A DNA stretch of 64,000 bases from Spirochaetia bacterium (lineage in GTDB: Bacteria > Spirochaetota > Spirochaetia > DSM-2461), in assembly GCA_963666985.2 (NCBI GenBank), contig CAXXIA010000002.1, positions 736,001 through 800,000 on the forward strand, read 5' to 3'. Below, one piece after another: positions 54 through 14,703 of this stretch. The first letter of the stretch is position 1. Each line of letters begins with the position of its first letter. Under the pieces are notes generated by a model. It was not told where the DNA came from. It made no database searches and saw nothing but the letters and a program-made list of their open reading frames with translations. The position numbers and the translations under genes were made by a program.

Positions 54-1010
54 ATGTTTGAAACCTATTATGAATACCCCTCTCCAGCAGAAATCAGCTG
101 GCCCGAGAAACTTAAAGAGCTAACGGCCGGATATAAAAAAATCGGAACTGATTTGTACACCCGCTCGGAAATCTTCAATGCACTTCAAGCCAACGCCCAG
201 GTTCACCCCTTCAACTGGGTCTACAACCGAAGATTTGTTAAATCCGAAGCCGAAATCCTTATACTAAAAGAAGCATCAAAGTACATTCGCTCCTCCATGC
301 TGGATTTCATCAAACACATCCGCCGGGGCGCAATAGTTATGGACACACTGAATCCGGCCAGAAAAACACAGAAGAAAGTCCTCATAGACAGGAAATTCAA
401 CGTCGATTTTCTGGCCTACAACTTTCTTTCCGCCGGGTGGCCCGGAGCCCAAAGCGCCGAACCCCACAGTATTCCGAACCCCACCACACAATTCACGGAC
501 GGTCCGAACGTAATGATTCTATCCTATAGGATCGATGGATATGCCGTAGAACTGGAACGAACATTCTTTACATCAGTCCCTTCAGAACTGGAAACAAAAC
601 GCTTTCAGGATATGCTCAATGCCCGTCAGATCGCCTTTGCCATGTGCAAACCCGGAGCAAAGACCCATGATATCGATAAGGCCGCCCGGGATTATCTTAT
701 CGCTCAAGGCTATGAAAAAAACATCATCCACCGCACCGGACACGGCATGGGCGTTTCCAACCATGAAGGCCCCTTCCTCGCCATCGGATCCGACACCATT
801 CTGGAACCGGGAATGGTTCTTACAATAGAACCGGGAATCTACTTCAAAGGCCACGGCGCCTACCGCCATTCAGATACCATTGTGATAACCGAAGACGGCT
901 ATGAAAACCTCACCGGCATCCCCACCGGATTGAACTTTCTCACCAGAACCCGCCCGGTCGGCCCGATTGACCGAATCAAGCGGATGGCAATCAATAGAAT
1001 CATCCGTTAG
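54..1010 (+). CDS. Xaa-Pro peptidase family protein (M24); the true start probably lies upstream of the window
   Basis: M24 motifs HRTGHGMG..HE, TIEPGIY, RHSDT; the reading frame is open back to the window edge. Confidence 0.85.
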   Translation: MFETYYEYPSPAEISWPEKLKELTAGYKKIGTDLYTRSEIFNALQANAQVHPFNWVYNRRFVKSEAEILILKEASKYIRSSMLDFIKHIRRGAIVMDTLNPARKTQKKVLIDRKFNVDFLAYNFLSAGWPGAQSAEPHSIPNPTTQFTDGPNVMILSYRIDGYAVELERTFFTSVPSELETKRFQDMLNARQIAFAMCKPGAKTHDIDKAARDYLIAQGYEKNIIHRTGHGMGVSNHEGPFLAIGSDTILEPGMVLTIEPGIYFKGHGAYRHSDTIVITEDGYENLTGIPTGLNFLTRTRPVGPIDRIKRMAINRIIR

Positions 1011-1056
1011 CTCTTCTTCCTTTGGGCAAATTTTCCCGACTTCTGCGGGAAAAACA

Positions 1057-1330
1057 CGCTTTGCGGGATTCCGTCCCGGCGGCTACGCCGCCGGATCGCA
1101 AAAAGGGTTGTACCGCAGACGCAAAGCGTCGAGGAACATAACAGCCGTGCACCACAGCGTAGCGAAGAGCATGGCGAGTCTCCCGACACTGCGGCGCCCC
1201 TCCTCTCCCTAACGCAGTCGAGGGTTGTGGCCAAGTTTAACTTGGACATAACCGAGACAAGGCAAGGGAAATGCATAGGCATTATCCCTAACGTTTTAGG
1301 GACGCACCGCTGTTAATGTTCTTCGCTTCG
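1057..1330 (+). repeat. Structured intergenic element, copy A (diverged inverted homolog at 12880-13173)
   Basis: Blocks CGCTTTGCGGGA (1057), GCAAAAAGGGTTGTACCGCAG (1098), CGAGGAAC (1130), GCGCCCCTC (1194), CGCAGTCGAG (1213) and AGGCAAGG (1260) recur in the same order on the minus strand at 13173-12974, with hairpins between blocks. Confidence 0.8.
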
Positions 1331-1904: not shown

Positions 1905-2420
1905 TCAACTCTCCCCTTTCAACAGCTCCCGTTCCAGAAACCACCGGACGGAACCGAAAGCGAACATTTCCATCTTCACATCCCGGCGGCTCAAAAATAA
2001 AACCTCCGAGACTTCATCTTCCTGGAGGGAAAACGGTCCGGAAACACATTCGGCTCTAAAGAATAAATCACAGGTTTTATAAACAATGCCCTTATAGGGG
2101 TATGTATTCGGCCGACTGGCGGCGTATTCGAGGGAAGCAAGCTCAACACCCAGCTCTTCTCTCAGCTCCCGGCGGCACGCTTCCTCGGCGGACTCATCCG
2201 GATCCACGAACCCGCCCGGAAGATCGAGGAGCCCGAGCCCGGGCTCCTTGGCGCGGCGTAAGAAAACGAATCGGTCATCCCGCTTCAGCAGAATACCGAC
2301 GGCGGAAGCAACGTTGTGATAATACGTAAAACCGCATTCGGGACATACGATTTTCCGTTCGGCGGGAAACTCCGGGGCCGGACGGCGGCATTGGGGACAA
2401 TACTTGAACATGGAATTCAT
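1905..2420 (-). CDS. NUDIX hydrolase with N-terminal zinc ribbon
   Basis: CPQC...CPEC ribbon; Nudix box GGFVDPDESAEEACRRELREELG. Confidence 0.9.
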   Translation of the reverse strand: MNSMFKYCPQCRRPAPEFPAERKIVCPECGFTYYHNVASAVGILLKRDDRFVFLRRAKEPGLGLLDLPGGFVDPDESAEEACRRELREELGVELASLEYAASRPNTYPYKGIVYKTCDLFFRAECVSGPFSLQEDEVSEVLFLSRRDVKMEMFAFGSVRWFLERELLKGES

Positions 2421-2572
2421 TGTCTCTTGATTCGAAAGGACAAATCAAGGATGCGATCGGAAAAGATCGGTTTGAAATCCGCGCCCTTCTGGTTACACAC
2501 GGCGGCTTACACACGAAGCCGCGTCGAAGAAAAATCGAGGCGGCTCCGGCGTTTTTTCTCAAGGACGCACCG

Positions 2573-3553
2573 CTATAAGGCAAAAACCCCGGTTCGCAGC
2601 ATCTTCAGCATTTCCGTGGCGGAACCTGTTTCCGTTAAAGAATCCAAGGCTTCCCTGCCGATTTTTTCCACCAGCCGGGTATATAAATCCATGTAGAGGA
2701 TGCTCTCCCGAACGGCTTCGAACTGATCTTCCCGGAAAGGGAAAATGTCCACGGAAATCCATCCGCCGTATCCTCGCTTATCCAGGATATGAAACATCTC
2801 CAGGAACTCAGGCAAACGGACCGAACCGACAATCATGTCGTCGTCCCATGTTCCGTAGTTGTCGTTGGCGTGAACATTGAACAAACGGCCCGCTTTCAGC
2901 GCCATATCCAAATCCCGAGCCATGTTTCCGCCGGCCAAAAGCGTATGCCCCACATCCACGGTCAAACCGAGATTGGTCCGATTCGCTTCGGCGCAAATCA
3001 GAAGAGCCGTGGGCACGGTATCCACCAGAGAACGATTCCGAGGTTCCCGAAGCTTCGGTTCCAGGGTAATCTTCACATCGGGCGCGTAATCACAGAGCTC
3101 TGTGACGCTTTCCAGAAACGCATCCCACTGCCGGGCGTAATCGGTTTGGAAGGGGTAATCGAATCCGTCCTGACCGGTCCAAAGATTATATCCGCCCGCT
3201 CCGACCGACCGGGCGAAATCCAGCCCCCGTTTGGTATCGTCAACAGCGTTTTTCCGAACAGCCGCATCGGAGGCCGAAAGCGATCCGTACATCCATTTTT
3301 GTTCTCCGTATAAGGAAGAATTCACGAAAGACGCCTTCAGTCCCGCCTCGCCGAGGAGTTTTTTGACGGCGATCTCATCGGATTCAACGCCGCCTTCGGT
3401 GGAAAAGCTCAATTCCACGCCGTCAAGAACGCCGATGTTCACCAAGGCGTCGATAATTTCTTCATAGGCGTAGGGACGTTTATACCCGCAACTCATATAC
3501 CTGTCGCAGATGTTGTTCAAAGATCCGGTGATGGTGCTGTACTTGTATTTCAT
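2573..3553 (-). CDS. Xylose-isomerase-like TIM-barrel sugar isomerase
   Basis: WTGQDGFDY, EPKLREPR, DVGH, HANDN..DDD metal-binding motifs. Confidence 0.85.
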   Translation of the reverse strand: MKYKYSTITGSLNNICDRYMSCGYKRPYAYEEIIDALVNIGVLDGVELSFSTEGGVESDEIAVKKLLGEAGLKASFVNSSLYGEQKWMYGSLSASDAAVRKNAVDDTKRGLDFARSVGAGGYNLWTGQDGFDYPFQTDYARQWDAFLESVTELCDYAPDVKITLEPKLREPRNRSLVDTVPTALLICAEANRTNLGLTVDVGHTLLAGGNMARDLDMALKAGRLFNVHANDNYGTWDDDMIVGSVRLPEFLEMFHILDKRGYGGWISVDIFPFREDQFEAVRESILYMDLYTRLVEKIGREALDSLTETGSATEMLKMLRTGVFAL

Positions 3554-3657
3554 TTAAATTCCTTTCGGTGGCGTCTTTCGAGAACCGCCCTTATGAAAAG
3601 TCGCATAAGATTCCGGGATTCACTCACCCCGGATTGAACGGGCGGTTCCGTTTGTTC

Positions 3658-4524
3658 CTATTCGCTCATCAGCCCCCGAACGAAGGCAACCGATTTCTTA
3701 AGATTTTCATCCATCAAGGAAGGATTCATAAGAGGACGATATAAGCTTACGGCGGAGCCGACTTCGCCTCCGGGCTTCACGAAAGGTTCCATGGTAATGG
3801 GCCCCCGGTAGTCCGCGCCTTTGAGCGCCGAGAAAATATCCTTCCACGGCATGGTTCCCAAACCGGGGAATTTTCGGTTGTTTTCACCGATATGGAAATA
3901 GCCGAGGCGTTTCCCGGCCGTGAGAATGGCATCAACCTGGGAATCTTCTTCGATATTCATATGGAACGTATCCAAATGAATACCGATTTGAGGCGAACCG
4001 ACCTCATCAATATATTGAATCGCCTCGGCGCAGCTGTTGACCAGGAAATTCTCGAAACGATTCACCACCTCGACATTGAACTTCACGCCATGATCGGCGA
4101 AAGCCTTGGAGGCTTCCTTCATGCTCTTCACGCTGATATTCCAGCGTTCGCTCTTTTCTTTATAATCCTGAATCCGCCCGTTCCAAGCTCCGTGAACAAT
4201 GCCGCTGCATGAGGGAGCTCCCACCTTTTCCATGGCGGCGGCCAGTTTGATCAGGAAATCCAGACCGGCCTTCCGAACGGAGGAATCGGCGGAACTCACA
4301 TCCAGTTCCACGGGGAGTCCCAAACTCATCGCCAATAAAACGCCGTTGTCTTCCGCCATGGCCTTGAATTCGGCGATGGCCGCATCATCCATTTCCACAA
4401 GCCATGCGGCGCCGAACTCCAAGAGATCGAAACCCAGGGCTTTAGCCTTCGGAATCAAATCTTGTTGATTTTCCATCCAGTCGGTTACGAAACAGCCGTA
4501 ATGGATACCCAGAGGATTATTCAT
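3658..4524 (-). CDS. D-psicose/D-tagatose 3-epimerase family ketose epimerase
   Basis: EVVNRFE, HLDTFHMNIEE, HIGENNRKFPG, TMEPF motifs. Confidence 0.88.
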   Translation of the reverse strand: MNNPLGIHYGCFVTDWMENQQDLIPKAKALGFDLLEFGAAWLVEMDDAAIAEFKAMAEDNGVLLAMSLGLPVELDVSSADSSVRKAGLDFLIKLAAAMEKVGAPSCSGIVHGAWNGRIQDYKEKSERWNISVKSMKEASKAFADHGVKFNVEVVNRFENFLVNSCAEAIQYIDEVGSPQIGIHLDTFHMNIEEDSQVDAILTAGKRLGYFHIGENNRKFPGLGTMPWKDIFSALKGADYRGPITMEPFVKPGGEVGSAVSLYRPLMNPSLMDENLKKSVAFVRGLMSE

Positions 4525-4628
4525 TGCTCGATTCTCCTTTTCTTCTCTCATTTCTCATTTGCGTGTATCGAAAGGCGGCGATGCCGGCGGAGTCCTGGGA
4601 CGAACAAAACGCCCCGAGAGGAATGCCG

Positions 4629-5852
4629 TCAGATCTTCCGCCAATCCTCGACGGCCAAATCCGGATTACCGGCGCCGAAATGTTTCAGAATAACCAGATC
4701 GTCACAGGGCGAATTGTTTGTAATTTCAACACCTTCTTTAGCGGCCTGCTCGCCGACGAAATATTCATCAAGAGTCAGCTGACCGAATCTGATCAACGCC
4801 GGTGTTTCCACCGGATGTCCGCCGAAGGAACCATGTCCCTGAACCACGTACATTCCGTAAGCCGCCGCATCTTTAATAACGACGCTGCGGCCGGGTTCGA
4901 CGGTCAGCTCTTTGGCGCTGATGGCCTCGCTCTTATAGCAGATCCAATTTTCGCGGTATCCGTCCATCTCTTCGGAAGCTTTTACCGGTTTCGGAGCCAT
5001 GAAGTTATGCTCGTGAAAAAGAGGATCCACATTGAGTTCCCAATCGATTACTTCAACGAGGTAGTCGAAGTTTCCCATTTTATCTTCGGGAGTATTCTTC
5101 CACAGAAGCGAGGAATCGATAATCTGATGATTCACCAAAGACTGGTACATGGCATAAACATCGGAAGCCATTTGAGGCTCGTAAGTACACAGACTTCCCG
5201 GCGCGTGAAGCACTCCGGGATGAACGTTCCAGCCGGTTCCCGGAACAAGACGATACGCCGGGGCCAAATCGGTAATATGATTATCCCCTTTGGTGAAGTC
5301 CATTAAAGCCTTCTTCACCTCTTCCCTGGTGGTTTCGGGATTCAGACCGAAGAACGTATACGGGAAATCTCCGCCGTGATTGTTCAGTTGGGGCGGAAAA
5401 TAATAAGCCTCGGGCTTTCCCATCTCGCCGACCAGAGCGGCATGCTCATCTCCATGATGAATATGATGCGGCAGCGGCCCTTTATTATCGAAGAATTTGG
5501 AAAACATCGGCCATTTGCCGTAGGTGTTCCACAGACGATCGCCGATAAGAGCGCCCTTCAGTTCATCCACCGCATCCCTGAGAAGGAACTGCTCCGTTTT
5601 GCCGCCGTCTTCGAAAACAACGAAACTCAAACCTTCATTTTCACCGGTTTCCGGACCGTTGTCCGCCGGAGTCGTGGAGGAAAACCACCTTTCGTCGATT
5701 CCGCCCCGGTTTCCGCCGAGAGCATAGTAATCATCCGGATGGAGCTTGATACGCCGGCCGGGGATACAGAAGGAACGAGGAACCCAGTTGGGAACCAGCC
5801 TGAAGATGCCCCGCCCGGCATCGAATGCGTTGTGAATCGTATTTTTAGACAT
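4629..5852 (-). CDS. Cupin protein, class I phosphomannose-isomerase-like
   Basis: PHHIH, GKPEAYY and PGVLHAPG cupin metal motifs; sugar operon context. Confidence 0.7.
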   Translation of the reverse strand: MSKNTIHNAFDAGRGIFRLVPNWVPRSFCIPGRRIKLHPDDYYALGGNRGGIDERWFSSTTPADNGPETGENEGLSFVVFEDGGKTEQFLLRDAVDELKGALIGDRLWNTYGKWPMFSKFFDNKGPLPHHIHHGDEHAALVGEMGKPEAYYFPPQLNNHGGDFPYTFFGLNPETTREEVKKALMDFTKGDNHITDLAPAYRLVPGTGWNVHPGVLHAPGSLCTYEPQMASDVYAMYQSLVNHQIIDSSLLWKNTPEDKMGNFDYLVEVIDWELNVDPLFHEHNFMAPKPVKASEEMDGYRENWICYKSEAISAKELTVEPGRSVVIKDAAAYGMYVVQGHGSFGGHPVETPALIRFGQLTLDEYFVGEQAAKEGVEITNNSPCDDLVILKHFGAGNPDLAVEDWRKI

Positions 5853-5921
5853 ATGCCTACTCCTTAGAAATCCGTTGTAAGTATCATGGAACGCGAGAGA
5901 TTCCGCCTCTCACGATTCGTT

Positions 5922-6854
5922 TCAATCCCGGAGCCGGTCCAGAAGAACGGCACCGATTATAATCAATCCCTTCACGACCAGCTGAAAATAAGCCGAAATC
6001 CCCAGAAGATTCATACCGTTGTTAATCACGCCGATCAGCAGGGCGCCGACAAAGGTTCCCCAAATGGTGCCGCGGCCGCCCATCAGGCTCGTTCCGCCGA
6101 TAACCACCGCCGCGATAACGTCCATTTCATATCCGTTACCGGCGATCGGTTCCGCGGAATTAAGCCTTGAGGTAAGAATGAGGGAACTGATGCCGGCGGT
6201 CAGACCGGAGATTCCGTAAATAATCGTCTTGAAGAAAGGCGCATTAATCCCCGAGAGACGAACGGTTTCCTCGTTGCCGCCGATGGCGTAGGTGTAGCGT
6301 CCCAAACGGGTCTGATTCAGAATAAGCCAGGCCAATACCACCGATACGAAGAAAAGAATGATGGGAATGGGGATTCCCAGAACATAACCTCCGCCGAGCT
6401 TCCGGAATCCCTCGCTGAATCCCGATATGGGATACCCGTTGGTATAAATCATCGTCAAACCCCGGGCGATGCTCATCATTCCCAGAGTCACCACGAAGGG
6501 CGTAATCTTTCCCAGATTGATAATCAGCCCGTTCACCAGGCCGAAGAGGGTGCCCACCAACAAAGTACCGATGAAAACGGGAAGAGGACTCCATCCGGCT
6601 TTAAGCATTCCGGCGCAGGCAACGCCGGAGATGGCCACCAAAGACCCGACCGAAAGGTCGATACCGCCCGTGAGAATCACAAACGTCATTCCTACCGCCA
6701 TAATTCCGTAAATGGACGACTGCCTGACGACATTGATGATGTTCATTCCGGTAAGAAACACAGGAGAGAGAATGGAAAGGATGATGCACAGAACGAAGAA
6801 CGCGATCACGATCCCGTAGTTCTTCATGATGTACTTGATATCGGGCGCTTTCAT
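5922..6854 (-). CDS. Monosaccharide ABC transporter permease (RbsC-like)
   Basis: GGIDLSVG, AIGGNEE and IAAVVIGG motifs; multiple TM segments. Confidence 0.93.
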   Translation of the reverse strand: MKAPDIKYIMKNYGIVIAFFVLCIILSILSPVFLTGMNIINVVRQSSIYGIMAVGMTFVILTGGIDLSVGSLVAISGVACAGMLKAGWSPLPVFIGTLLVGTLFGLVNGLIINLGKITPFVVTLGMMSIARGLTMIYTNGYPISGFSEGFRKLGGGYVLGIPIPIILFFVSVVLAWLILNQTRLGRYTYAIGGNEETVRLSGINAPFFKTIIYGISGLTAGISSLILTSRLNSAEPIAGNGYEMDVIAAVVIGGTSLMGGRGTIWGTFVGALLIGVINNGMNLLGISAYFQLVVKGLIIIGAVLLDRLRD

Positions 6855-8356
6855 GCGGTCGCTCCTTTTTCATGGAGGCCGAGGGAATATTCCATCACCT
6901 CTTCCTCACTTGCTTCGCCCTTGGCGAATTCCTTGACGATGCGACCGTCGTAGACGACTTCGATCCGATCGCTCATATTCATAATTTCCGTAAGCTCCGA
7001 GGACACCATGATGATTCCGGCACCGGCGGCGGCAAGATTCTGCATCAATTTGTAGATTTCCAGCTTGGCGCCCACATCGATGCCCCGTGTCGGTTCGTCA
7101 AAAATGTAAAGGTCGCAATCCCGAATAAACCACTTGGAAAGAACCACCTTCTGCTGATTGCCGCCCGAGAGGTTCTGAGCCTGCTGCTTGGTGGAAGGTG
7201 TTTTGATTGCGATGTCCCGAATAATCTTCTTAACCTTGCCGGTGATGATGCGGCGCTGGAGAAACCCGAACCGGGAATACTTATCAAGAACGGTGATGGC
7301 CGAATTGTCGAATAAGGACATTCCGAGAATCAGTCCCTGCTTCTTTCTCTCTTCAGGAATAAGACCGATACCCTGACGAACAGCGTCCCGCGGCTTCTTA
7401 ATCTTTATTTCCCGCCCCTTCATGAAGATTCTGCCCGCATCCTTTTTCCGATGGCCGTAGATCAGTTCCATAATCTCCGTCCTGCCGGCACCCACGAGAC
7501 CGGTGAATCCGACGATTTCACCGCTTTGCACGGTGAAATTCACGTTACGGCAGACTCCTTCTTTGGATAATCCTTCCACGCGCAGCATTTCGCCTTTGGG
7601 AACGTAGGAAGATTGGGGATACTGCTCGGTAAGCTGCCGTCCGACCATGTGTTTGATAATCTCATCGACGGTTAGTTCACCATACGGTTTCGTAATAATG
7701 CACTCGCCGTCCCGAAGAACGGTTACCCGATCGGCGACATGGCTGAGTTCTTCCAATCGATGGGAAATATATATAATCGAAACGCCTTTGGCCTTCAGGC
7801 CGGCGATAATTTCAAAGAGACGATCAACCTCGTTTCCGGTGAGCGGCGCGGTGGGCTCGTCCATCACCAAAATGTCCGATTTCAAAGAAATGGCTTTGAG
7901 GATTTCCACAACCTGCTGGAAGGCCGGACTGATGGTATACACCTTGGCCCGAGCATCCAGCTCAATATGGAACGACGCCATCAGTTCTTCCACATTGCCG
8001 TACATGGCTTTCCAATCGATAAGCCCGCTTGGATGGCGGGGTTCCCTGCCGAGGAAAATATTTTCGGCGATGGAAAGGTTGTTTACCAGGTTCAGCTCCT
8101 GATAGATCACGCTGATTCCGGAGGCCAGCATGTTTTTAAGGCCGCTGTTGGTTACATCCCGGCCTCTGAGTTCAATCCGTCCTTCGTCCGACCTGTACAC
8201 ACCCGAGAGTATCTTCATCAGTGTGGATTTTCCGGCGCCGTTCTCTCCCACCAAGGCATGGACTTCACCGGTATCGAGGTCGAAATTCACATTTTTAAGG
8301 GCTTTGACTCCGGGAAACGATTTCGTGATTCCCGTCATTTTCAGCAATGTCGACAT
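6851..8356 (-). CDS. Monosaccharide ABC transporter ATP-binding protein (RbsA-like)
   Basis: GENGAGKST Walker A, LSGGNQQKV, DEPTRGIDVGAK; tandem ABC domains. Confidence 0.95.
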   Translation of the reverse strand: MSTLLKMTGITKSFPGVKALKNVNFDLDTGEVHALVGENGAGKSTLMKILSGVYRSDEGRIELRGRDVTNSGLKNMLASGISVIYQELNLVNNLSIAENIFLGREPRHPSGLIDWKAMYGNVEELMASFHIELDARAKVYTISPAFQQVVEILKAISLKSDILVMDEPTAPLTGNEVDRLFEIIAGLKAKGVSIIYISHRLEELSHVADRVTVLRDGECIITKPYGELTVDEIIKHMVGRQLTEQYPQSSYVPKGEMLRVEGLSKEGVCRNVNFTVQSGEIVGFTGLVGAGRTEIMELIYGHRKKDAGRIFMKGREIKIKKPRDAVRQGIGLIPEERKKQGLILGMSLFDNSAITVLDKYSRFGFLQRRIITGKVKKIIRDIAIKTPSTKQQAQNLSGGNQQKVVLSKWFIRDCDLYIFDEPTRGIDVGAKLEIYKLMQNLAAAGAGIIMVSSELTEIMNMSDRIEVVYDGRIVKEFAKGEASEEEVMEYSLGLHEKGATA

Positions 8357-8380
8357 GGCATTCCTATTTTAACGGACATC

Positions 8381-8408
8381 AGGGACCGGTGAATCAATTC
8401 CCGGTCCC
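8381..8408 (-). other. Intercistronic hairpin after the substrate-binding protein gene
   Basis: GGGACCGG...CCGGTCCC inverted repeat between the SBP and ATPase genes. Confidence 0.5.
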
Positions 8409-8441
8409 CGACGTCATTTCATTTTTCTATCTACTCCGGTT

Positions 8442-9353
8442 TTACGGCATCGGCTTCGGGCTGATGTAAATCACATCCTTGGCGGGCTTTTCTCCCGCAG
8501 TGATGTTTTTATAGAGAACTTCCAGCGCCGTTCCGGCCTGCTGTCCGGGGAACTGGTCGACGGTCACGTCCAGTTTGCCTTCGTCGATATAAGCAAAGGC
8601 ATCGGGAGTGGCGTCGAAACCGACGGTAACGATACCGGAAGGATCGATGCCCGAAGCGGCCATGGCCTCGATGGCGCCGATGATCATTTCGTCGTTGGCA
8701 CCGAAGACGGCGTCGAAATCAGGATGAGCCTGAATCAGATTTTCCATAACGCTCTGACCTTTGGATCGGGAGAAGTCCGCGCTCTGGCTGGCCAGAATTT
8801 TCACTCCGGAACCGGCCATGACTTCATCGAAACCGGCTTTCCGGTCTATGGCCGCCGAAGCGCCCGGTGTGCCTTCCAGCTCAATAACCTTACCTTTTCC
8901 GCCGAGTGCATCAATGATGAACCGCGCCGCGGACCGTCCGCCTTCGACATTGTCGGCACCGACATGAATCAGAACTTTGTCGGTATTCGCCTTCCTGTCC
9001 ACGGTGGCCACGGGGATACCGGCGGCCACGGCGGCCTCGATGGCCGGAACTTGGGAATCGGTCGTAATGGGGGAAATCAAAATGCCGTCGACCTTCTGAG
9101 CGATGAAGTTTTCAATGGCGGCCATCTGATTGGACGATTGATTCTGAGAATCATGAATAATCAGCTTCACACCGAGCTCATCGGCCTTCTTCTGCGCTTC
9201 GTCTCCCATAATGACGAAAAACGGGAACTGCATTCCCGGTACGGTCATCCCGATGGTAATTACACCTTCGTCGCCCGCATCGGCACCGCCGCCGGCAAAG
9301 GCCATGGGAACGGCCAAAGCGATCAGACAGAGAACCGCGAGATACTTTTTCAT
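8442..9353 (-). CDS. Sugar ABC transporter substrate-binding protein (RbsB-like)
   Basis: Signal peptide ending AFAGG; GADNVEGG, ANDEM and VGFD motifs; GGAG RBS. Confidence 0.92.
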   Translation of the reverse strand: MKKYLAVLCLIALAVPMAFAGGGADAGDEGVITIGMTVPGMQFPFFVIMGDEAQKKADELGVKLIIHDSQNQSSNQMAAIENFIAQKVDGILISPITTDSQVPAIEAAVAAGIPVATVDRKANTDKVLIHVGADNVEGGRSAARFIIDALGGKGKVIELEGTPGASAAIDRKAGFDEVMAGSGVKILASQSADFSRSKGQSVMENLIQAHPDFDAVFGANDEMIIGAIEAMAASGIDPSGIVTVGFDATPDAFAYIDEGKLDVTVDQFPGQQAGTALEVLYKNITAGEKPAKDVIYISPKPMP

Positions 9354-9387
9354 GTCATTTCTCCTTTTTGGAATTGGTATTGGCCTC

Positions 9388-9417
9388 ATTATCAGGGGCT
9401 GAATTCACACTTGTCAA
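9388..9417 (-). promoter_or_regulatory. Sigma70-type promoter for the sugar ABC operon
   Basis: Minus strand TTGACA-18 bp-GATAAT, about 35 bp upstream of the SBP start. Confidence 0.55.
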
Positions 9418-9425
9418 GGAAAATA

Positions 9426-9629
9426 TGGCATCGTTTGCAATATCGTTTTCAGGATCATTTTTTCTGCATCCGAAATCAAGTTTCCTAAAATTAAATCGAT
9501 TCCATTTCCTTTTCTTATAAGTTTTTATCATTTATCAAGCGTAAATCATCAAAACATTGTTCATTGACAACGGCAAATCGTCATGATAACGTTTTTGCAA
9601 TCGTTTTCTTAACAATGGTAACGATATCC
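9426..9629. promoter_or_regulatory. LacI-family operator-like sites and lacI promoter
   Basis: CG-centred pseudo-palindromes TGGCATCGTTTGCA (9426), TGATAACGTTTTTG (9584), TGCAATCGTTTTCT (9596), TGGTAACGATATCC (9616); TTGACA (9564)-17 bp-TAACGT with TG extension. Confidence 0.6.
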
Positions 9630-9671
9630 CGCATTAGGGTAAGATACATCAACGGAAGGAGATCGTTTGCA

Positions 9672-10673
9672 GTGGCATCCATGAAAGACGTCGCCAAAAT
9701 GGCCGATGTTTCGATATCCACGGTCTCCCGAGTTATAAGCGGCACTACTCCCGTAGATCCCAAAACCCGCAAACGGGTGGAACAAGCCGTACAGGCAACC
9801 GGATTTAAGCCGAATCTTATCGCTCGCGGACTCCGTGTAAAAAGCGCATCACTGGTGGGAATGCTGGTTCCGGAAATCCGGACGACGAGTTTTTCCATTC
9901 TTATCGAGCACGTGGAAACGGCCGTCGAAGCCTTGGGCTACAACCTGATATTGGGAGGAACCGGAGGTGATCCGGACCGTGAAGAGCGGTTTTTTGAGAA
10001 TCTGGTCCGGCGTCATATCGACGGCGTGATTGTTTCCTTGGTGTCCGATCACAGCCACCTTATGCACCTGATCGAGCGTACCGACGTACCGGTGGTTATC
10101 ATCGATCGGCCGCTGAAACACTATGCGTTTCCCACGGTGGTTATGGATAACCGCCTTGCCGGAAAAATGGCCGCGGAACACCTGCTCTCCCTCGGACACA
10201 AGAAATTCGCCTGCATTACGGGAGGATCCGACATCGGCATCTCCAGAGACCGGCTGGACGGATTTCGGGACGCGCTCGCCGATGCGGGGATTCTCCTTGA
10301 AAGCAAAGCGGTTGTCGACGGGAATTTCCAGTATGAATCCGGATATCGCTGCATAGACGCTTTATTGTCAAACGGCGCGGCCTTTACGGCACTTTGGGCG
10401 CAAAACGACATTATGGCCATCGGCGCTCTGAACCGGCTCAGAGAACACGGGATTTCCGTTCCCGGAGACGTTTCCATAATGGGCGTCGACAACGTGGATG
10501 ACGCCTGGATGGCGCGGCCCGCGATAACCACCATCGCCCAGCCGTACAAAGAGATTGCGCAAGTCGCGGCCCGTCTGCTTCACAGCATAAATCGGGGTGA
10601 AACTCTGGAAGAAAAATGGCTGACGCTTGCTCCCGAATTGGTCGTGAGGGAATCAACCGGAATCGCATCTTAA
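9672..10673 (+). CDS. LacI-family transcriptional regulator
   Basis: HTH MKDVAKMADVSISTVSRV plus sugar-binding domain; likely GTG start at 9672. Confidence 0.93.
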   Translation: MASMKDVAKMADVSISTVSRVISGTTPVDPKTRKRVEQAVQATGFKPNLIARGLRVKSASLVGMLVPEIRTTSFSILIEHVETAVEALGYNLILGGTGGDPDREERFFENLVRRHIDGVIVSLVSDHSHLMHLIERTDVPVVIIDRPLKHYAFPTVVMDNRLAGKMAAEHLLSLGHKKFACITGGSDIGISRDRLDGFRDALADAGILLESKAVVDGNFQYESGYRCIDALLSNGAAFTALWAQNDIMAIGALNRLREHGISVPGDVSIMGVDNVDDAWMARPAITTIAQPYKEIAQVAARLLHSINRGETLEEKWLTLAPELVVRESTGIAS

Positions 10674-10706
10674 GAAAAAGGCCGCTTGGGCCGGGATAAG
10701 GAAACC

Positions 10707-11102
10707 ATGAAGAAAACCACGTTACTGAACGCACCGCTCTCCGGACTCATCGCGTCTTTGGGACATACGGATACCGTATGCCTCGCCGATGCCGGGCTGC
10801 CCGTTCCTCCGGGCCCCGCACGCATCGATCTTGCCGTCCGTCCCGGACTTCCCGATTTCAAAGCCGTTCTGGAAACCATACTTGAAGAGATGGAAGTGGA
10901 AGAAGTGATTCTTGCGGAAGAAATTCGGGAGAAAAATCCCGAGATTCATCAAGTACTGACTCAAAAGCTCAGAGGGATTCCCTTTACTTATGTTCCGCAT
11001 GAGGAATTCAAACGCTTAAGCGCGGGAACGAAAGCCGTCGTCAGAACCGGAGAATGCACGCCGTATTCGAACGTTATCCTCCGTTCCGGAGTTGTTTTCT
11101 AA
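10707..11102 (+). CDS. rbsD: D-ribose pyranase
   Basis: GHTD..LADAGLP, HEEFK, RTGECTPYSN motifs. Confidence 0.95.
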   Translation: MKKTTLLNAPLSGLIASLGHTDTVCLADAGLPVPPGPARIDLAVRPGLPDFKAVLETILEEMEVEEVILAEEIREKNPEIHQVLTQKLRGIPFTYVPHEEFKRLSAGTKAVVRTGECTPYSNVILRSGVVF

Positions 11103-11185
11103 AAACAACCCGGCTCGATAAAAACAACCCGATTCCCCATGCCTCCGTTCCGCGATAAGCGGTTTTCAGCCGCTTTACCGAATTC

Positions 11186-12793
11186 TCAGGACTTTCTTTT
11201 CAACAGAGAGGCCCATTGAAATTTCTTTACCTGAAACCTGCCGAAAGAAGAAACTAAATAATAGAATAAAAAGAACGTCGTATAACCTTCCCACAGTAAA
11301 TTCATCAAGGCGTTTCTCATATCATACTTAATCGCAGTCAAGAACGTCTGAAGCATTAAGACTGAAAGAAAACCGTAATATAGAATAGGAATTAAGTTTA
11401 TACTCAGATTCTCCTTATGATTATTATATTCCGACAGGTTTAAGGCATTTGAGATGATTTTGGAATATACATTAATCAAGAAAATTAGAATTACAAAAGA
11501 AACAATCCTGAAACTTTGCACATTGTAATTGGAAATCAAGAAGAAATCATACACTCCGTGTAAAATCATTGCCGCGAGGAAGGTCGGTATAACATACAGC
11601 CCGATTCCTTTATATTTTTTCACAAACAAACCATAAACGGACAAAGAAGTGAGTGCCATGTGCAGAACGACGGCGCTTAACGCTCTGGAATTGATATTGG
11701 ACAGACCCAACTCGTTAAAATAATGCATATTTTCTATTGTCGCGAAGCCCAAAGCACCGAGAGAAGCATAGATTATGAAATCCACGGATTCATTCATTTC
11801 TTTTAAGGCAAATAAAACAACTAAAAATGGAATCAATTTCACCAATTCTTCAATAAACCCAATGCAAAACACGGAATAAATCAAATCATTCACTAAAGAT
11901 CCGGAAAGATGAAACTTAAAATAGATATGCCAGATATCATAGAGAATACTGGAGAGGAACGCGGAAATTATTCCCAATAGAAAAGTGAAGATGAGAATGG
12001 ATATCCGATCTTTCTCAAACACATCAATTTTATGGAAGAAGAAGATCCATACGGCTGAAATGAGTATACCGGCGATAAAACCTTCCGGGATAATGTTCCT
12101 AAAAAAATCAAGAAATCTCTCGGCTAAATAACTGAAATATTTTTTCTGAATCAGCGTATATCGTATAAGGATATTTGACGAAATGTATTTAAGGGATTCT
12201 TTGTTTGACAACAACTTGTCCAGCTCGGCGTATTGTTTCGTGGAAAACAGAAGTTTCGACAAATTGGAATATGCTCCGCTCACATTTCCGCGAATTTCAA
12301 TCTCCTTATAAAAATATTTCTTGGCGGCATCGGCTTGATCCGTTTGGAGATAGATGTAACCAATTGAATTATTAACATAAGGAATCTTTTCATCGTTTAT
12401 TTGAAGATAAAAAGACAATGCGCTCTCAAAATCATAGATTTTGACATAATAAAACCCGATGCAGTAGAGAATAATATCTCTATATTCGGGTTTTGTAATA
12501 AGATAATCCTGATATTCCTTCAGAATATCTTTATCGCTTCTGCTGCTATACTTTGATTTCGACGAGAGAATACTGAAATAATTATTAATATAACCTCGAT
12601 GCAATTCCACATTGCCGAAATCATCGGCTAATAATCTTTTGTATTCTTTTTCCGCAATGAAATATCTTTTGGTTGCAACGGCATTTTTAATGATTTCTTC
12701 AGACGATTCGGAATGAGAAAAACGGTCGACCAGCAGGATTAAAACCAACGTAACCAATAATGCCGAAACGGTAACAAAAAAATACTTTCTCAT
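11186..12793 (-). CDS. PrsW-family intramembrane glutamic protease with N-terminal TPR-like region; AT-rich
   Basis: EELVK, GFATIEN, LHM and LHGVYD motifs; TPR-like YIYLQ..AAKKYF; about 30-38% GC in two sampled lines. Confidence 0.85.
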   Translation of the reverse strand: MRKYFFVTVSALLVTLVLILLVDRFSHSESSEEIIKNAVATKRYFIAEKEYKRLLADDFGNVELHRGYINNYFSILSSKSKYSSRSDKDILKEYQDYLITKPEYRDIILYCIGFYYVKIYDFESALSFYLQINDEKIPYVNNSIGYIYLQTDQADAAKKYFYKEIEIRGNVSGAYSNLSKLLFSTKQYAELDKLLSNKESLKYISSNILIRYTLIQKKYFSYLAERFLDFFRNIIPEGFIAGILISAVWIFFFHKIDVFEKDRISILIFTFLLGIISAFLSSILYDIWHIYFKFHLSGSLVNDLIYSVFCIGFIEELVKLIPFLVVLFALKEMNESVDFIIYASLGALGFATIENMHYFNELGLSNINSRALSAVVLHMALTSLSVYGLFVKKYKGIGLYVIPTFLAAMILHGVYDFFLISNYNVQSFRIVSFVILIFLINVYSKIISNALNLSEYNNHKENLSINLIPILYYGFLSVLMLQTFLTAIKYDMRNALMNLLWEGYTTFFLFYYLVSSFGRFQVKKFQWASLLKRKS

Positions 12794-12879
12794 GGAAACA
12801 TTATGAATAAAGTCTCTGGAAATGTTTATTACTTTTTCCGGTTCGGCTGCGGCTCTCACTTCGCGGAAGCGAGACCTGA

Positions 12880-13173
12880 GGTTGTTCTTCCGCTCGTTCG
12901 GCATCAGCCAAAACATCCCGCTTTGGCTGATGATCTCGGCTGCGAAAGCGATAACTCTTTCGGAGTACCGCGTCCTTGCCTCGGCACTATCCGATAAAGC
13001 TCCGCTTTATCATCTGCTGATCTCGGCTGCGAAAGCGATAAGAGGGGCGCGGCGGCTGTGTCCGTTCGGCGGAGCCGAACCGGACTACCGGAATCGTTCC
13101 TCGGGCGTTTCCCTGCGGTACGACCCTTTTTGCCGTATGCGCAAAAAAGCGCATATGGAACTCCCGCAAAGCG
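12880..13173 (-). repeat. Structured intergenic element, copy B, with an internal 24-bp direct repeat
   Basis: Same six blocks as copy A in reverse complement; TGATCTCGGCTGCGAAAGCGATAA at 12931 and 13018; hairpins at 12902-12932, 12993-13011, 13064-13080 and 13136-13155. Confidence 0.8.
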
Positions 13174-13239
13174 CGGCGCTCCGGCTTCGAGCCGAAACGG
13201 CCCGCGAAGCCGGAACAATCGTCCCTAAAAAACGATCAG

Positions 13240-14703
13240 CTACCTGAAACTCTCCACCCGCTTATTGAACTCAACGATCATTTCATCGATGGCTCCGGCG
13301 GCTCCGAAAATTTCATTCCAATAATCCCGATCGTACCACTGAGCGTTGATTTCCTCGTAGGTTTTTCCCTGCTGTTCAACCCAGGTGTAGTACTTCAGAT
13401 TATGGATGCGCTTGCGGTCGGTATAGCGCAGTTCGGCCATGTTGTCCGTACCGATACCCATCAGCATTTCATAATCGGCAACGGCGTTATCCCGCGTATA
13501 CGCACCCCGCTCCTCGGTGAGCTCTTTCAGACGGCTGGTATACATGGCTTCCGAATCGGTGAAACAGGTAAAGATGATATCGTCTTCGGTAAACTCGTAA
13601 TACTTGGCCATTTTCACGGCGGTAAGCATGTTGCAGATGGAGCTGATTCCCAGCAGATTCATATTCTCAACCACGCCGCCCGCGGCGCCCTTGGAGATTA
13701 AATACTCCTTGCCGGCCGACTCGTTAAAGAGACGCAGCATCCTCATGGTGGGCTCGTCGTCGATGGCGGCCACCATATCGGTGTCCTTCAGGTTATGAAC
13801 CCACGGAACATGCTTGTCGCCGATCCCCTCGATGCGGTGGGCGCCGAAACCGTTGGCCAGAAGCGTGGGGCACTGCAAGGCCTCGGAAACCGCCAGCTTG
13901 GCGCCGGGGAACTTCTTCTTGATATACGTCCCCGATCCCAAAGTTCCGCCGGAACCCGAAGAGAGGGTGCAGCCGGCCAGACGGCTCCTCTCTCCGGCCA
14001 CAATTCCGAAAACCTCTTCAAAAGCCCGCCCGGTCACCTCATGATGCCAGAGGGTGTTGGGCATCTGGTCGAACTGATTAAAAATAAAGACGCCCGCGCC
14101 GTGCTCGGCTTCAATCTCATGACACTTGTCGAAAATCTCTTTCACGTTGCTCTCGGAACCCGGCGTGGCGATGGTCTGGTCGGCCATGTTCTTCAGCCAG
14201 TTAAACCTCTCCTGACTCATCTCCTCGGGAAGAATGGCGATGGACTTACAGGCCAAAAGCCGGGAGATATACGCGCCGCCGCGGCAGTAGTTTCCGGTGG
14301 ACGGCCAGACGGCCATGTTTTTCTCCGGATCAAACTGACCGGTGATAAGCGTGGGGGCCAAGCAGCTGTAGGCCGCTCCCACCTTGTGCGCGCCGGTGGG
14401 GAAGTATTTGCCCACCAGTCCGATAATCCGGGCCCGCACTCCGCTGATTTCGGAGGGGATTTCCACGTAATTAACGCCGCCGAAGCCGCCGCCTTTCCGC
14501 ACGGGCTCATTCTTCCACGTTACGCGGAACAGGTTGCGGGAATGCACCTCGTCCCTGTCGATGCCCTTCAATTCCTCCACGATGGAATCGGGAACCAGGG
14601 TTGGGTCGGCCATTTGGGCGTACGTAGGGAGGATAATATCCTGCTCGGCGCAAATCTTCGCATTTCTATCGATTTGGGCCTCATTTTTCGTTAGATCGAT
14701 CAT
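13240..14703 (-). CDS. Fold-type II PLP-dependent enzyme (tryptophan synthase beta superfamily)
   Basis: PTGAHKV PLP-lysine motif, STGNY, SGSGGT phosphate loop, HRIEGIG; GAGGAG RBS before ATG 14703. Confidence 0.8.
   Translation of the reverse strand: MIDLTKNEAQIDRNAKICAEQDIILPTYAQMADPTLVPDSIVEELKGIDRDEVHSRNLFRVTWKNEPVRKGGGFGGVNYVEIPSEISGVRARIIGLVGKYFPTGAHKVGAAYSCLAPTLITGQFDPEKNMAVWPSTGNYCRGGAYISRLLACKSIAILPEEMSQERFNWLKNMADQTIATPGSESNVKEIFDKCHEIEAEHGAGVFIFNQFDQMPNTLWHHEVTGRAFEEVFGIVAGERSRLAGCTLSSGSGGTLGSGTYIKKKFPGAKLAVSEALQCPTLLANGFGAHRIEGIGDKHVPWVHNLKDTDMVAAIDDEPTMRMLRLFNESAGKEYLISKGAAGGVVENMNLLGISSICNMLTAVKMAKYYEFTEDDIIFTCFTDSEAMYTSRLKELTEERGAYTRDNAVADYEMLMGIGTDNMAELRYTDRKRIHNLKYYTWVEQQGKTYEEINAQWYDRDYWNEIFGAAGAIDEMIVEFNKRVESFR

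Follow-up and report, generated by a model that had tools for sequence, protein, structure and literature searches.

Among the dispersed hairpin repeats known in bacteria, the REP/BIME mosaics and the tRNA-linked repeats (TLR) of Escherichia coli are the closest to the elements described here, with which they share no sequence homology. According to PMC8266576, PMC3733652 and PMC3184786, REP/BIME are modular palindromes that lie behind stop codons, occur in tandem and in convergent gaps, and form strand-specific folds with mismatches. Our elements resemble them in all these respects, as well as in having CT or CA at many junctions and in being targets of insertion sequences; the cleavage of a CT dinucleotide by TnpA-REP is described in PMC8266576. 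Regarding the TLR (RtT, RF00391; RrA, RrB and RrF), the account in PMC8144298 places them in the sense orientation behind tRNA and rRNA genes, in one to five tandem copies that finish with a duplicate of the host RNA's 3' end, and reports small RNAs from the rrn members. Rickettsia palindromic elements, Correia/NIME, BOX and MITE-type repeats are also dispersed, structured and lineage-restricted (some of them are treated in PMC3184786). In a spirochaete, Treponema denticola, TD-1 and TD-2 are likewise multi-copy, covarying, modular hairpins, presented in PMC1950547 as A-U-rich, disjoint and confined to one species; the consensus given in that text contains neither the X nor the Y blocks defined below, and by their description they look unrelated to our modules. 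For mosaic hairpin repeats that have no known transposase, such as the TLR (on record since 1978) and the CGTC REPs, a mechanism of spread is lacking. Here we describe a real, selected and uncatalogued family of hairpin modules with exact junctions, empty and filled alleles, swaps at the strain level and a named candidate enzyme, so that the mechanism of spread can be put to the test with oligonucleotides and a single purified protein. On balance, we read the two composites of our locus as mosaic intergenic repeats of nested 40-90-nt hairpins, likely non-autonomous micro-elements that move as folded single-stranded DNA, probably by means of an HUH enzyme, with the IS91 type as a tentative candidate.

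The window analysed is a 64-kb stretch (C2:736001-800000) of a spirochaete genome of 4.86 Mb, hereafter G000. The original prediction had described in it two diverged, inverted copies (A and B) of one structured element made of six colinear blocks. We found the blocks at the claimed places, with gaps that we re-measured as 29/11/56/10/37 nt in A and 28/9/45/10/40 nt in B. The local alignment of both copies scored 64, in comparison with a mean of 24 and a maximum of 38 over 500 shuffles, and RNA folding gave z values of -3.7 and -3.8 against dinucleotide shuffles. The hairpins cited for the gaps are present in both copies, and each copy does begin just behind a stop codon in the sense direction (Table 1). 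The element had not been recognised as a known family, which agrees with our searches: Rfam 15 at the gathering threshold gave no match across the 64-kb window (the best over copy A having only E values of 1.6 and 7.8), and none was obtained for the modules in 17 and 9 further sources, where the positive controls RNAI and RtT were detected. RF00391 matched the E. coli copies and none of the spirochaete loci. Besides, searches of the open-access literature found no account of this repeat family.

Table 1. Layout of composites A and B and the stop codons that precede them (window positions)
Feature	Position	Strand	Remarks
Stop codon, upstream M24 (Xaa-Pro type) peptidase gene	1008..1010	+	Copy A begins 11 nt behind
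A, starts of blocks 1 to 6	1057, 1098, 1130, 1194, 1213, 1260	+	
A, backbone M, left part	1021..1099	- (predicted conserved pairing)	T-run, H1, block 1 core, H2
A, hairpin H1 of M	1031..1054		
A, block 1 core of M	1057..1076		
A, hairpin H2 of M	1076..1094		
A, module X	1100..1188	+	Blocks 2-3; within loop of M hairpin 3; stem covariation
A, module S, about 40 nt	1139..1179	+	Nested inside X; boundaries +/-2 nt; filled versus empty allele; more copies elsewhere
A, backbone M, right part	1189..1210	-	Block 4; ends in Y target site
A, left direct repeat of Y unit, TCCCTAACG	1206..1214	+	
A, module Y, 79 nt	1211..1289	+	Blocks 5-6; leader, core, anti-repeat, terminal hairpin
A, Y core stem-loop	1219..1256		Covarying; closed by tandem G.A
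A, Y anti-repeat AGGGA	1265..1269		
A, right direct repeat of Y unit, TCCCTAACG	1285..1293	+	M tail follows, to about 1305
Stop codon, PLP-dependent (PALP) enzyme gene, before copy B	13240..13242	-	
B, starts of blocks 1 to 6	13173, 13133, 13103, 13050, 13031, 12981	-	
B, backbone M, left part	13132..13232	+ (predicted conserved pairing, window plus strand)	T-run, H1, block 1, H2
B, block 1 of M	13173..13162		
B, hairpin H2 of M	13155..13136		
B, module X	13059..13131	-	Blocks 2-3; same M loop as in A; extra tail hairpin
B, backbone M, right part	13034..13058	+	Block 4; ends in Y target site
B, first Y unit, 87 nt	12947..13033	-	Scores 35 bits with the Y model, of which it was a member
B, second Y unit, 79 nt	12868..12946	-	Tandem
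B, putative remnant of a third Y	12838..12867	-	Core hairpin missing; read from the sequence

The count of two copies turned out to be too low, as the six blocks are split among three modules with their own copy numbers. A backbone formed by blocks 1 and 4 (M) is present nine times in the genome, as deduced from eight left-core and eleven right-core pattern matches, with one copy split by an IS1182 element. Blocks 2-3 (module X) have at least 14 copies (14 intergenic matches with E<=0.01), and blocks 5-6 (module Y) gave 39 genome matches. Empty sites, whose search the prediction had proposed, were found within this genome as empty and filled alleles. Three M copies contain neither X nor Y, and their alignment with A and B stays in register over the gap; an M copy at C2:463956 is free of Y, while a near-identical one at C1:756716 carries it; and an X copy at C2:1004969 has no S, in contrast to the one at C2:1505363, with a 40-nt S that is also found in copy A. 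A is thus M + X + S + Y, and B is M + X + Y + Y + a putative remnant. The bounds of X in the two copies are fixed by the boundaries of the X insertions in IS91-type genes described below, which end in the same tail (CCCGACA) as X in copy A. Two other M copies have X in a different loop and on the opposite strand. The M backbone of A looks chimeric, with a type-2 left core, a W-type right core and broken outer pairs, and A and B probably go back to a common M + X + Y ancestor that was later remodelled. Regarding their ends, M copies of the W type bear 16-nt terminal inverted repeats, which A and B lack and which are also missing from X and from a sister module, Q; GCGTC/GACGC occurs on some M ends, those of A and B excepted, and X and Y have no GTAG or CGTC tag. 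Like REP/BIME, the modules have many extragenic copies behind genes and form mosaic arrays, and differ from them in their longer rods with tandem G.A pairs, in being nested in each other's loops and in their link to IS91-type (Y2) genes.

The modules present covarying stems, in support of the claim that their structure is under selection with swapped stems. In the Y core, two helices form a stem that tandem G.A pairs close. Over 26 copies, 87% of the cells were paired, with 60 double changes and a covariation of 0.554 versus 0.247+/-0.020 in shuffled alignments; with 102 distinct copies from nine genomes, in an alignment fitted to the model, the values were 92%, 234 double changes and 0.589 versus 0.234. 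For the outer stem of X, covariation was 0.256 versus 0.108+/-0.021, over 22 rows chosen by pattern and by eye. The shuffles used for Y and X alike ignore relatedness. Pairing between blocks 1 and 4 of M is predicted for the strand opposite to that of X and Y, and the M stem shows two compensatory columns, with G-C/C-G swaps (14/5) and A-T/T-A swaps (11/4), together with near-invariant A.G pairs (20 rows, a few of them doubtful); in the full composites A and B, the predicted probability of this stem is zero on either strand. The helix that had been proposed between TGCGG of block 1 and CCGCA of block 2 is not supported: both sequences are complementary, yet their pairing probability stays at or below 0.04 for both copies, whether RNA or DNA parameters are used. 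Because the conserved pairing of blocks 1 and 4 is predicted on the strand opposite X and Y, and because the modules occur independently, one fold over six blocks is unsupported. Of the two readings offered originally, a folded non-coding RNA or a mobile element of single-stranded DNA, the second, in its non-autonomous form, is best supported, while a single RNA and a single six-block fold are not. One could still argue that A and B are a decayed chance duplication, or one six-block cis-regulatory RNA, given that both stand behind stop codons and fold well. The dozens of further copies, the independence of the modules, their covariation and allele polymorphism and the near-absent pairing of blocks 1 and 2 make both scarcely credible.

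The loops of Y bear on the choice between the two nucleic acids. Triloops of the form C-GNA-G were found 64 times on the folded strand and once on the opposite one (106 distinct Y loci, many of them paralogous), and UUCG loops were found in none of these 106 loci. GNA triloops closed by a C-G pair are very stable in DNA. Since these loops are DNA-stable, and since modules within one copy are predicted to fold on opposite strands, folding as DNA is favoured, and we consider it quite likely that the modules fold as DNA rather than as RNA.

X and Y are in the sense orientation relative to the upstream gene in ratios of 14:3 and 11:1 (p 0.013 and 0.006), and both avoid divergent gaps, where Y was found at 1 of 26 sites against a background of 27%; M lies mostly in convergent gaps (5/9). 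On the leading strand we counted 17/26 and 12/15 against a background of 62%, which amounts to no clear replichore bias and to none distinct from the gene-strand bias. The orientation of X and Y would also fit selection or an action at the RNA level, as in elements that are co-transcribed with the gene, tRNA or rRNA upstream, fold as RNA, are retained for their role in processing or stability, and spread via an RNA intermediate or by duplication of DNA. The rarity of Y in divergent gaps agrees with such a reading, and so do the arrays found behind tRNA genes or within 23S-5S spacers, the G.U pairs seen at one position of the Y stem in 39 of 102 rows and the precedent of the TLR as described in PMC8144298. 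Against it count the predicted folding of M and of X/Y on opposite strands of one copy, the DNA-type loops, the insertions of both orientations in IS91-type genes, and the sole reverse transcriptase match in G000, whose surroundings showed no link to the modules. We therefore regard an RNA-level element as unlikely and retain single-stranded DNA as the preferred reading. As a separate observation, X-like copies at C2:1370960 and C2:2648325 overlap or abut the 3' ends of called genes.

Y is a unit of 73-88 nt between direct repeats. In G000, repeats of at least 9 nt flank 15 of 34 anchored Y matches (6 of the 40 matches were dropped for having no anchor), in comparison with 2.5% of 1048 mismatched pairs. 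Among 107 Y matches examined, 48 of the 50 units with a repeat of at least 7 nt span 70-88 nt, and the other matches are arms inside larger elements. The targets have no relation to one another and include the M site, the 3' end of tRNA-Gly, the 23S-5S spacer and the ends of protein genes, with CT at the junction in six of eight target classes assessed by eye; behind tRNA-Gly the repeat copies the 3' end of the RNA gene (10-13 nt), whereas in A and B the target is the M backbone. Within each Y unit lies an arm that complements the unit's own repeat, in many cases apart from a single purine-purine mismatch, and this anti-repeat arm is predicted to be able to pair with the left or the right repeat copy. 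In the E. coli TLR copies that we examined, an internal arm likewise pairs with the tRNA-end repeat, and hairpins with GNA triloops abound. The two families differ in size, since PMC8144298 gives the TLR a spacing of 150-180 nt and a repeat of 18-19 bp, compared with 73-88 nt and 6-15 nt for Y, and Y, unlike the TLR, has further targets in the ends of genes, in other repeats and in transposase genes; the best TLR score with the Y model was 12 bits. Three rRNA operon ends in G000 (L021, L022 and L023) have differing Y and X units in their 23S-5S spacers, and arrays of Y and of a 187-nt unit lie behind tRNA-Gly and tRNA-Leu (L019, L020, L027 and L030), some of them broken by IS1182.

An internal arm complementary to the target is also a feature that Y has in common with IS200/IS605 and IS91/ISCR elements. 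By analogy with IS608, the anti-repeat might act as a target guide, which we hold to be possible and rather doubtful; if it did, Y would be part of a very small programmable system for the integration of single-stranded DNA. Even otherwise, the modules make up a repeat family, so far uncatalogued, that disrupts IS91-type genes and should not be annotated as regulatory RNA. For module Q, a test of guide-target pairing was negative (p 0.31 and 0.23). In copy A and in two further loci (L017 and L059), both direct repeats carry common private variants, so that local duplication or conversion fits better there than cut-and-join. Exact tandem arrays were also found, with periods of 48-51, 73-80 and 85-88 nt. 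We considered and rejected a leader-trailer pairing of Y specific to circles, because the same pairs form in linear Y and thus do not speak for circles; no circle or excision product of the modules was seen.

One X copy in G000 interrupts a remnant of an IS91-family transposase gene (family assigned by NF033538 above the cut-off) just before the HUH motif, and the same site holds X variants with other apical hairpins in G004 and G011. We aligned 111 of 115 IS91-type loci tried in this clade (92 kb) and found 53 clean insertions, 43 of them distinct, in both orientations and clustered at few sites. They are blunt, without a long target duplication, and 38 of the 53 measure 41-46 nt; across spirochaetes, clean module insertions range from 41 to 88 bases. 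X was found seven times at one site, with differing apical hairpins, Q at two sites (seven and five times) and a Y-like unit once. Insertion in coding DNA is shared with Rickettsia palindromic elements, Correia/NIME, BOX and MITE-type repeats. Our modules are much smaller than these and show no frame preference, as 20 of 53 lengths are multiples of three. In total, X, Y or Q lie inside 22 of 110 IS91-type loci, compared with 0/29 for IS1182 and 0/29 for IS481, controls that are younger (18 kb broken versus 48 kb) and come from other genomes, and with a Q profile that is circular in having been trained on IS91 inserts. The blunt insertion of X and Q without long duplication recalls IS200/IS605 and IS91/ISCR, to which the physical association with IS91-family genes adds. 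According to these results, the family is modular and polymorphic, with covarying stems, blunt insertion and a hot spot in IS91-type genes. That its modules are cleanly inserted into defunct transposase genes, after tRNA genes and within other repeats makes tiny mobile DNAs likely, rather than one RNA gene. G000 has two IS91-type remnants (L270 at C2:721746-721942 and L316 at C2:2746871-2747374), the second of which carries X and Q insertions.

The genomes with the most Y copies revealed no intact mobilising enzyme. Y2_Tnp had no match in G000 beyond these two remnants, and none in G006, a genome with 28 Y copies (90% complete, 270 contigs); its co-occurrence with Y is weak, at five of eight Y-bearing relatives versus nine of 32 others. 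Unlike IS91 and IS200 elements, the modules have no coding capacity. Their ends are unlike those of the associated IS91-type elements, including the oriIS-like end, oriIS and terIS ends were not found within them, and the module profiles matched three places near 30 Y2 loci, none of them at IS ends. Y1_Tnp was present in 0/1 and 1/5 genomes, its single match being an ordinary IS200-type gene, and the RAYT model matched in 0/5 genomes; a search for flanking RAYT genes in six genomes, four of them less than 90% complete or fragmented, found none. An integron integrase above the cut-off occurs in one of five Y-rich genomes (G006). These genome profile searches leave RAYT, IS200 and the integron integrase unsupported as mobilisers. 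Besides, G000 contains IS110, phage integrases and one reverse transcriptase, whose surroundings show no link to the modules, and the Y pattern was found in no viral contig. A 283-aa integrase-like ORF at C2:1777145-1777939, below the integron cut-off, stands at the edge of a low-GC, IS-rich region of G000, with two attC-like sites further on (C2:1827031 and C2:1917309).

Several facts thus count against the IS91-type enzyme: no intact gene was found in G000 or G006, co-occurrence is weak, the ends are unlike and the guide test of Q failed. Slippage, template switching at hairpins and gene conversion might suffice, with the IS91-type genes merely dead and often single-stranded. With this agree the absence of a mobiliser from the searches of G000 and G006, the private variants in both direct repeats, the exact tandem arrays and a core swap at an orthologous site. 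What such processes fail to explain is that 41-46-nt modules arrive de novo, with blunt junctions, at many coding positions unrelated to each other, since template switching copies local sequence and would not yield a dispersed family; we therefore judge that no dedicated enzyme is a distinctly improbable explanation. That an enzyme moves the modules, and not slippage only, is in our opinion probable, and an IS91-type transposase is a tentative candidate for it. Under the preferred reading, the modules would move as folded, non-autonomous single-stranded DNA, with cutting and joining of the HUH type placing them in folded DNA that lies exposed, be it other modules, the ends of RNA genes or the DNA of rolling-circle IS; tandem arrays and core swaps would arise by recombination between direct repeats and gene conversion. 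A bolder version, which we would rather doubt, takes X, Y, Q and S as the smallest known prokaryotic transposable units (41-88 nt), moved in trans by an IS91-type HUH enzyme and landing in one another, in the 3' ends of tRNA and rRNA and, as self-limiting parasites, in the gene of the transposase; Y would find its target through base pairing of the anti-repeat and hence be reprogrammable, the same scheme would explain the TLR and further mosaic repeats that have no transposase, and X would be a captured single-strand signal of a plasmid or phage.

Among relatives, Y was found in 8 of 40 genomes with 1-28 copies each, comprising 7 of 13 of the same genus and 0 of 16 of other families. At the position of copy A, the Y core of a close relative differs by 11 substitutions and one deletion, in contrast to adjoining coding DNA that is almost unchanged, and its compensatory pairs (1226/1250, 1229/1247 and 1233/1243) keep the pairing. 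On one contig of the close relative, 147 nt take the place of the 310 nt of B, a stretch 163 nt shorter. In 13 of 15 loci of the PLP gene examined (among 31 relatives with a match), an amidohydrolase gene follows, with no module, whereas in G000 these genes are 27.7 kb apart, and this insert is flanked by B on one side and by an IS91-type remnant (L270) on the other. Although the 8.8-kb sugar cluster between A and B is missing from the close relative, we rejected A and B as the arms of a mobile island or the borders of a cassette: low-GC neighbours are not enriched (M 1/10, X 4/15 and Y 4/26, against 252/1270), and the far border of the 27.7-kb insert showed no module. This 8.8-kb sugar isomerase/ABC/LacI/RbsD cluster of the window (2403-11210) is absent from its site in the close relative and replaced there by 100 other bases (one contig), and a PrsW-family gene of 35% G+C (11186-12781) adjoins copy B and is about 80% alike in the close relative, with flanks at about 98%. 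A 128-aa ORF (1336-1722) without Pfam or NCBIfam match occurs in four of 40 relatives, none of the same genus.

Finally, we looked at X outside this genome. The exact pattern was found in at least 124 stretches; among the 80 matches listed, 39 are spirochaetal, and at least 20 come from one genome with 48-51-nt tandem arrays. In one spirochaete genome, OZ246985.1 (L122, L123, L142 and L200), many X arrays have periods of 48-51 and 85-88 nt within an inverted-repeat frame. Outside the spirochaetes, we chose 28 loci by eye; several have plasmid rep genes as neighbours, or parM/methylase, TraU or inovirus-like secretin genes, with the X core nested in the same frame beside rep, parM and secretin genes, and many others beside defence or ordinary genes. 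ColE1 contains the X core a single time, some 120 nt downstream of its origin (2/200 shuffles), and has no match to Y or M; an X-containing version matches 346 plasmid records. The position in ColE1 is probably that of the primosome assembly site ssiA (n'-pas). The internal loop of X is thus found near the ColE1 origin as well as in plasmid and inovirus-like intergenic DNA, a likeness of sequence that we regard as a lead, not a function. Sites of the ssi kind are treated in PMC3167613, PMC5935869, PMC5778457, PMC6854812 and PMC2831885.

Such signals would fit modules that are minimal attC-like or primosome-signal-like sites of single-stranded DNA, of plasmid, phage or integron origin and handled by a tyrosine recombinase (the integron integrase) or by PriA of the host. 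In favour of this origin are the ColE1, plasmid and inovirus-like matches, the integron integrase of G006, and attC-like hairpins before 11 of 110 IS91-type loci, one of them with an X-like insert. The module junctions nevertheless lack the GTT crossover and the RYYYAAC...GTTRRRY ends of attC, the integrase exceeds the cut-off in one of five Y-rich genomes, and the plasmid argument leans on a presumed identity with ssiA and on loci chosen by eye, which leaves this origin highly improbable beside the HUH-type reading. The IS91-type loci with an attC-like hairpin before the transposase gene include L301, L302, L331, L332, L335, L336, L340, L353, L368 and L402, and an oriIS-like end follows the gene. 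In two loci (L114 at about 1500 and L118 at about 310), X immediately follows the stop codon that ends an inovirus-like secretin gene, a place at which filamentous phages keep origin signals; the inovirus-like X region gave no match to annotated phages. An X-containing repeat is also conserved in several actinobacteria (L121, L125, L132, L137-L139, L154, L161 and L199), often beside defence-type genes such as Mrr, Shedu, AlbA_2 and NucS.
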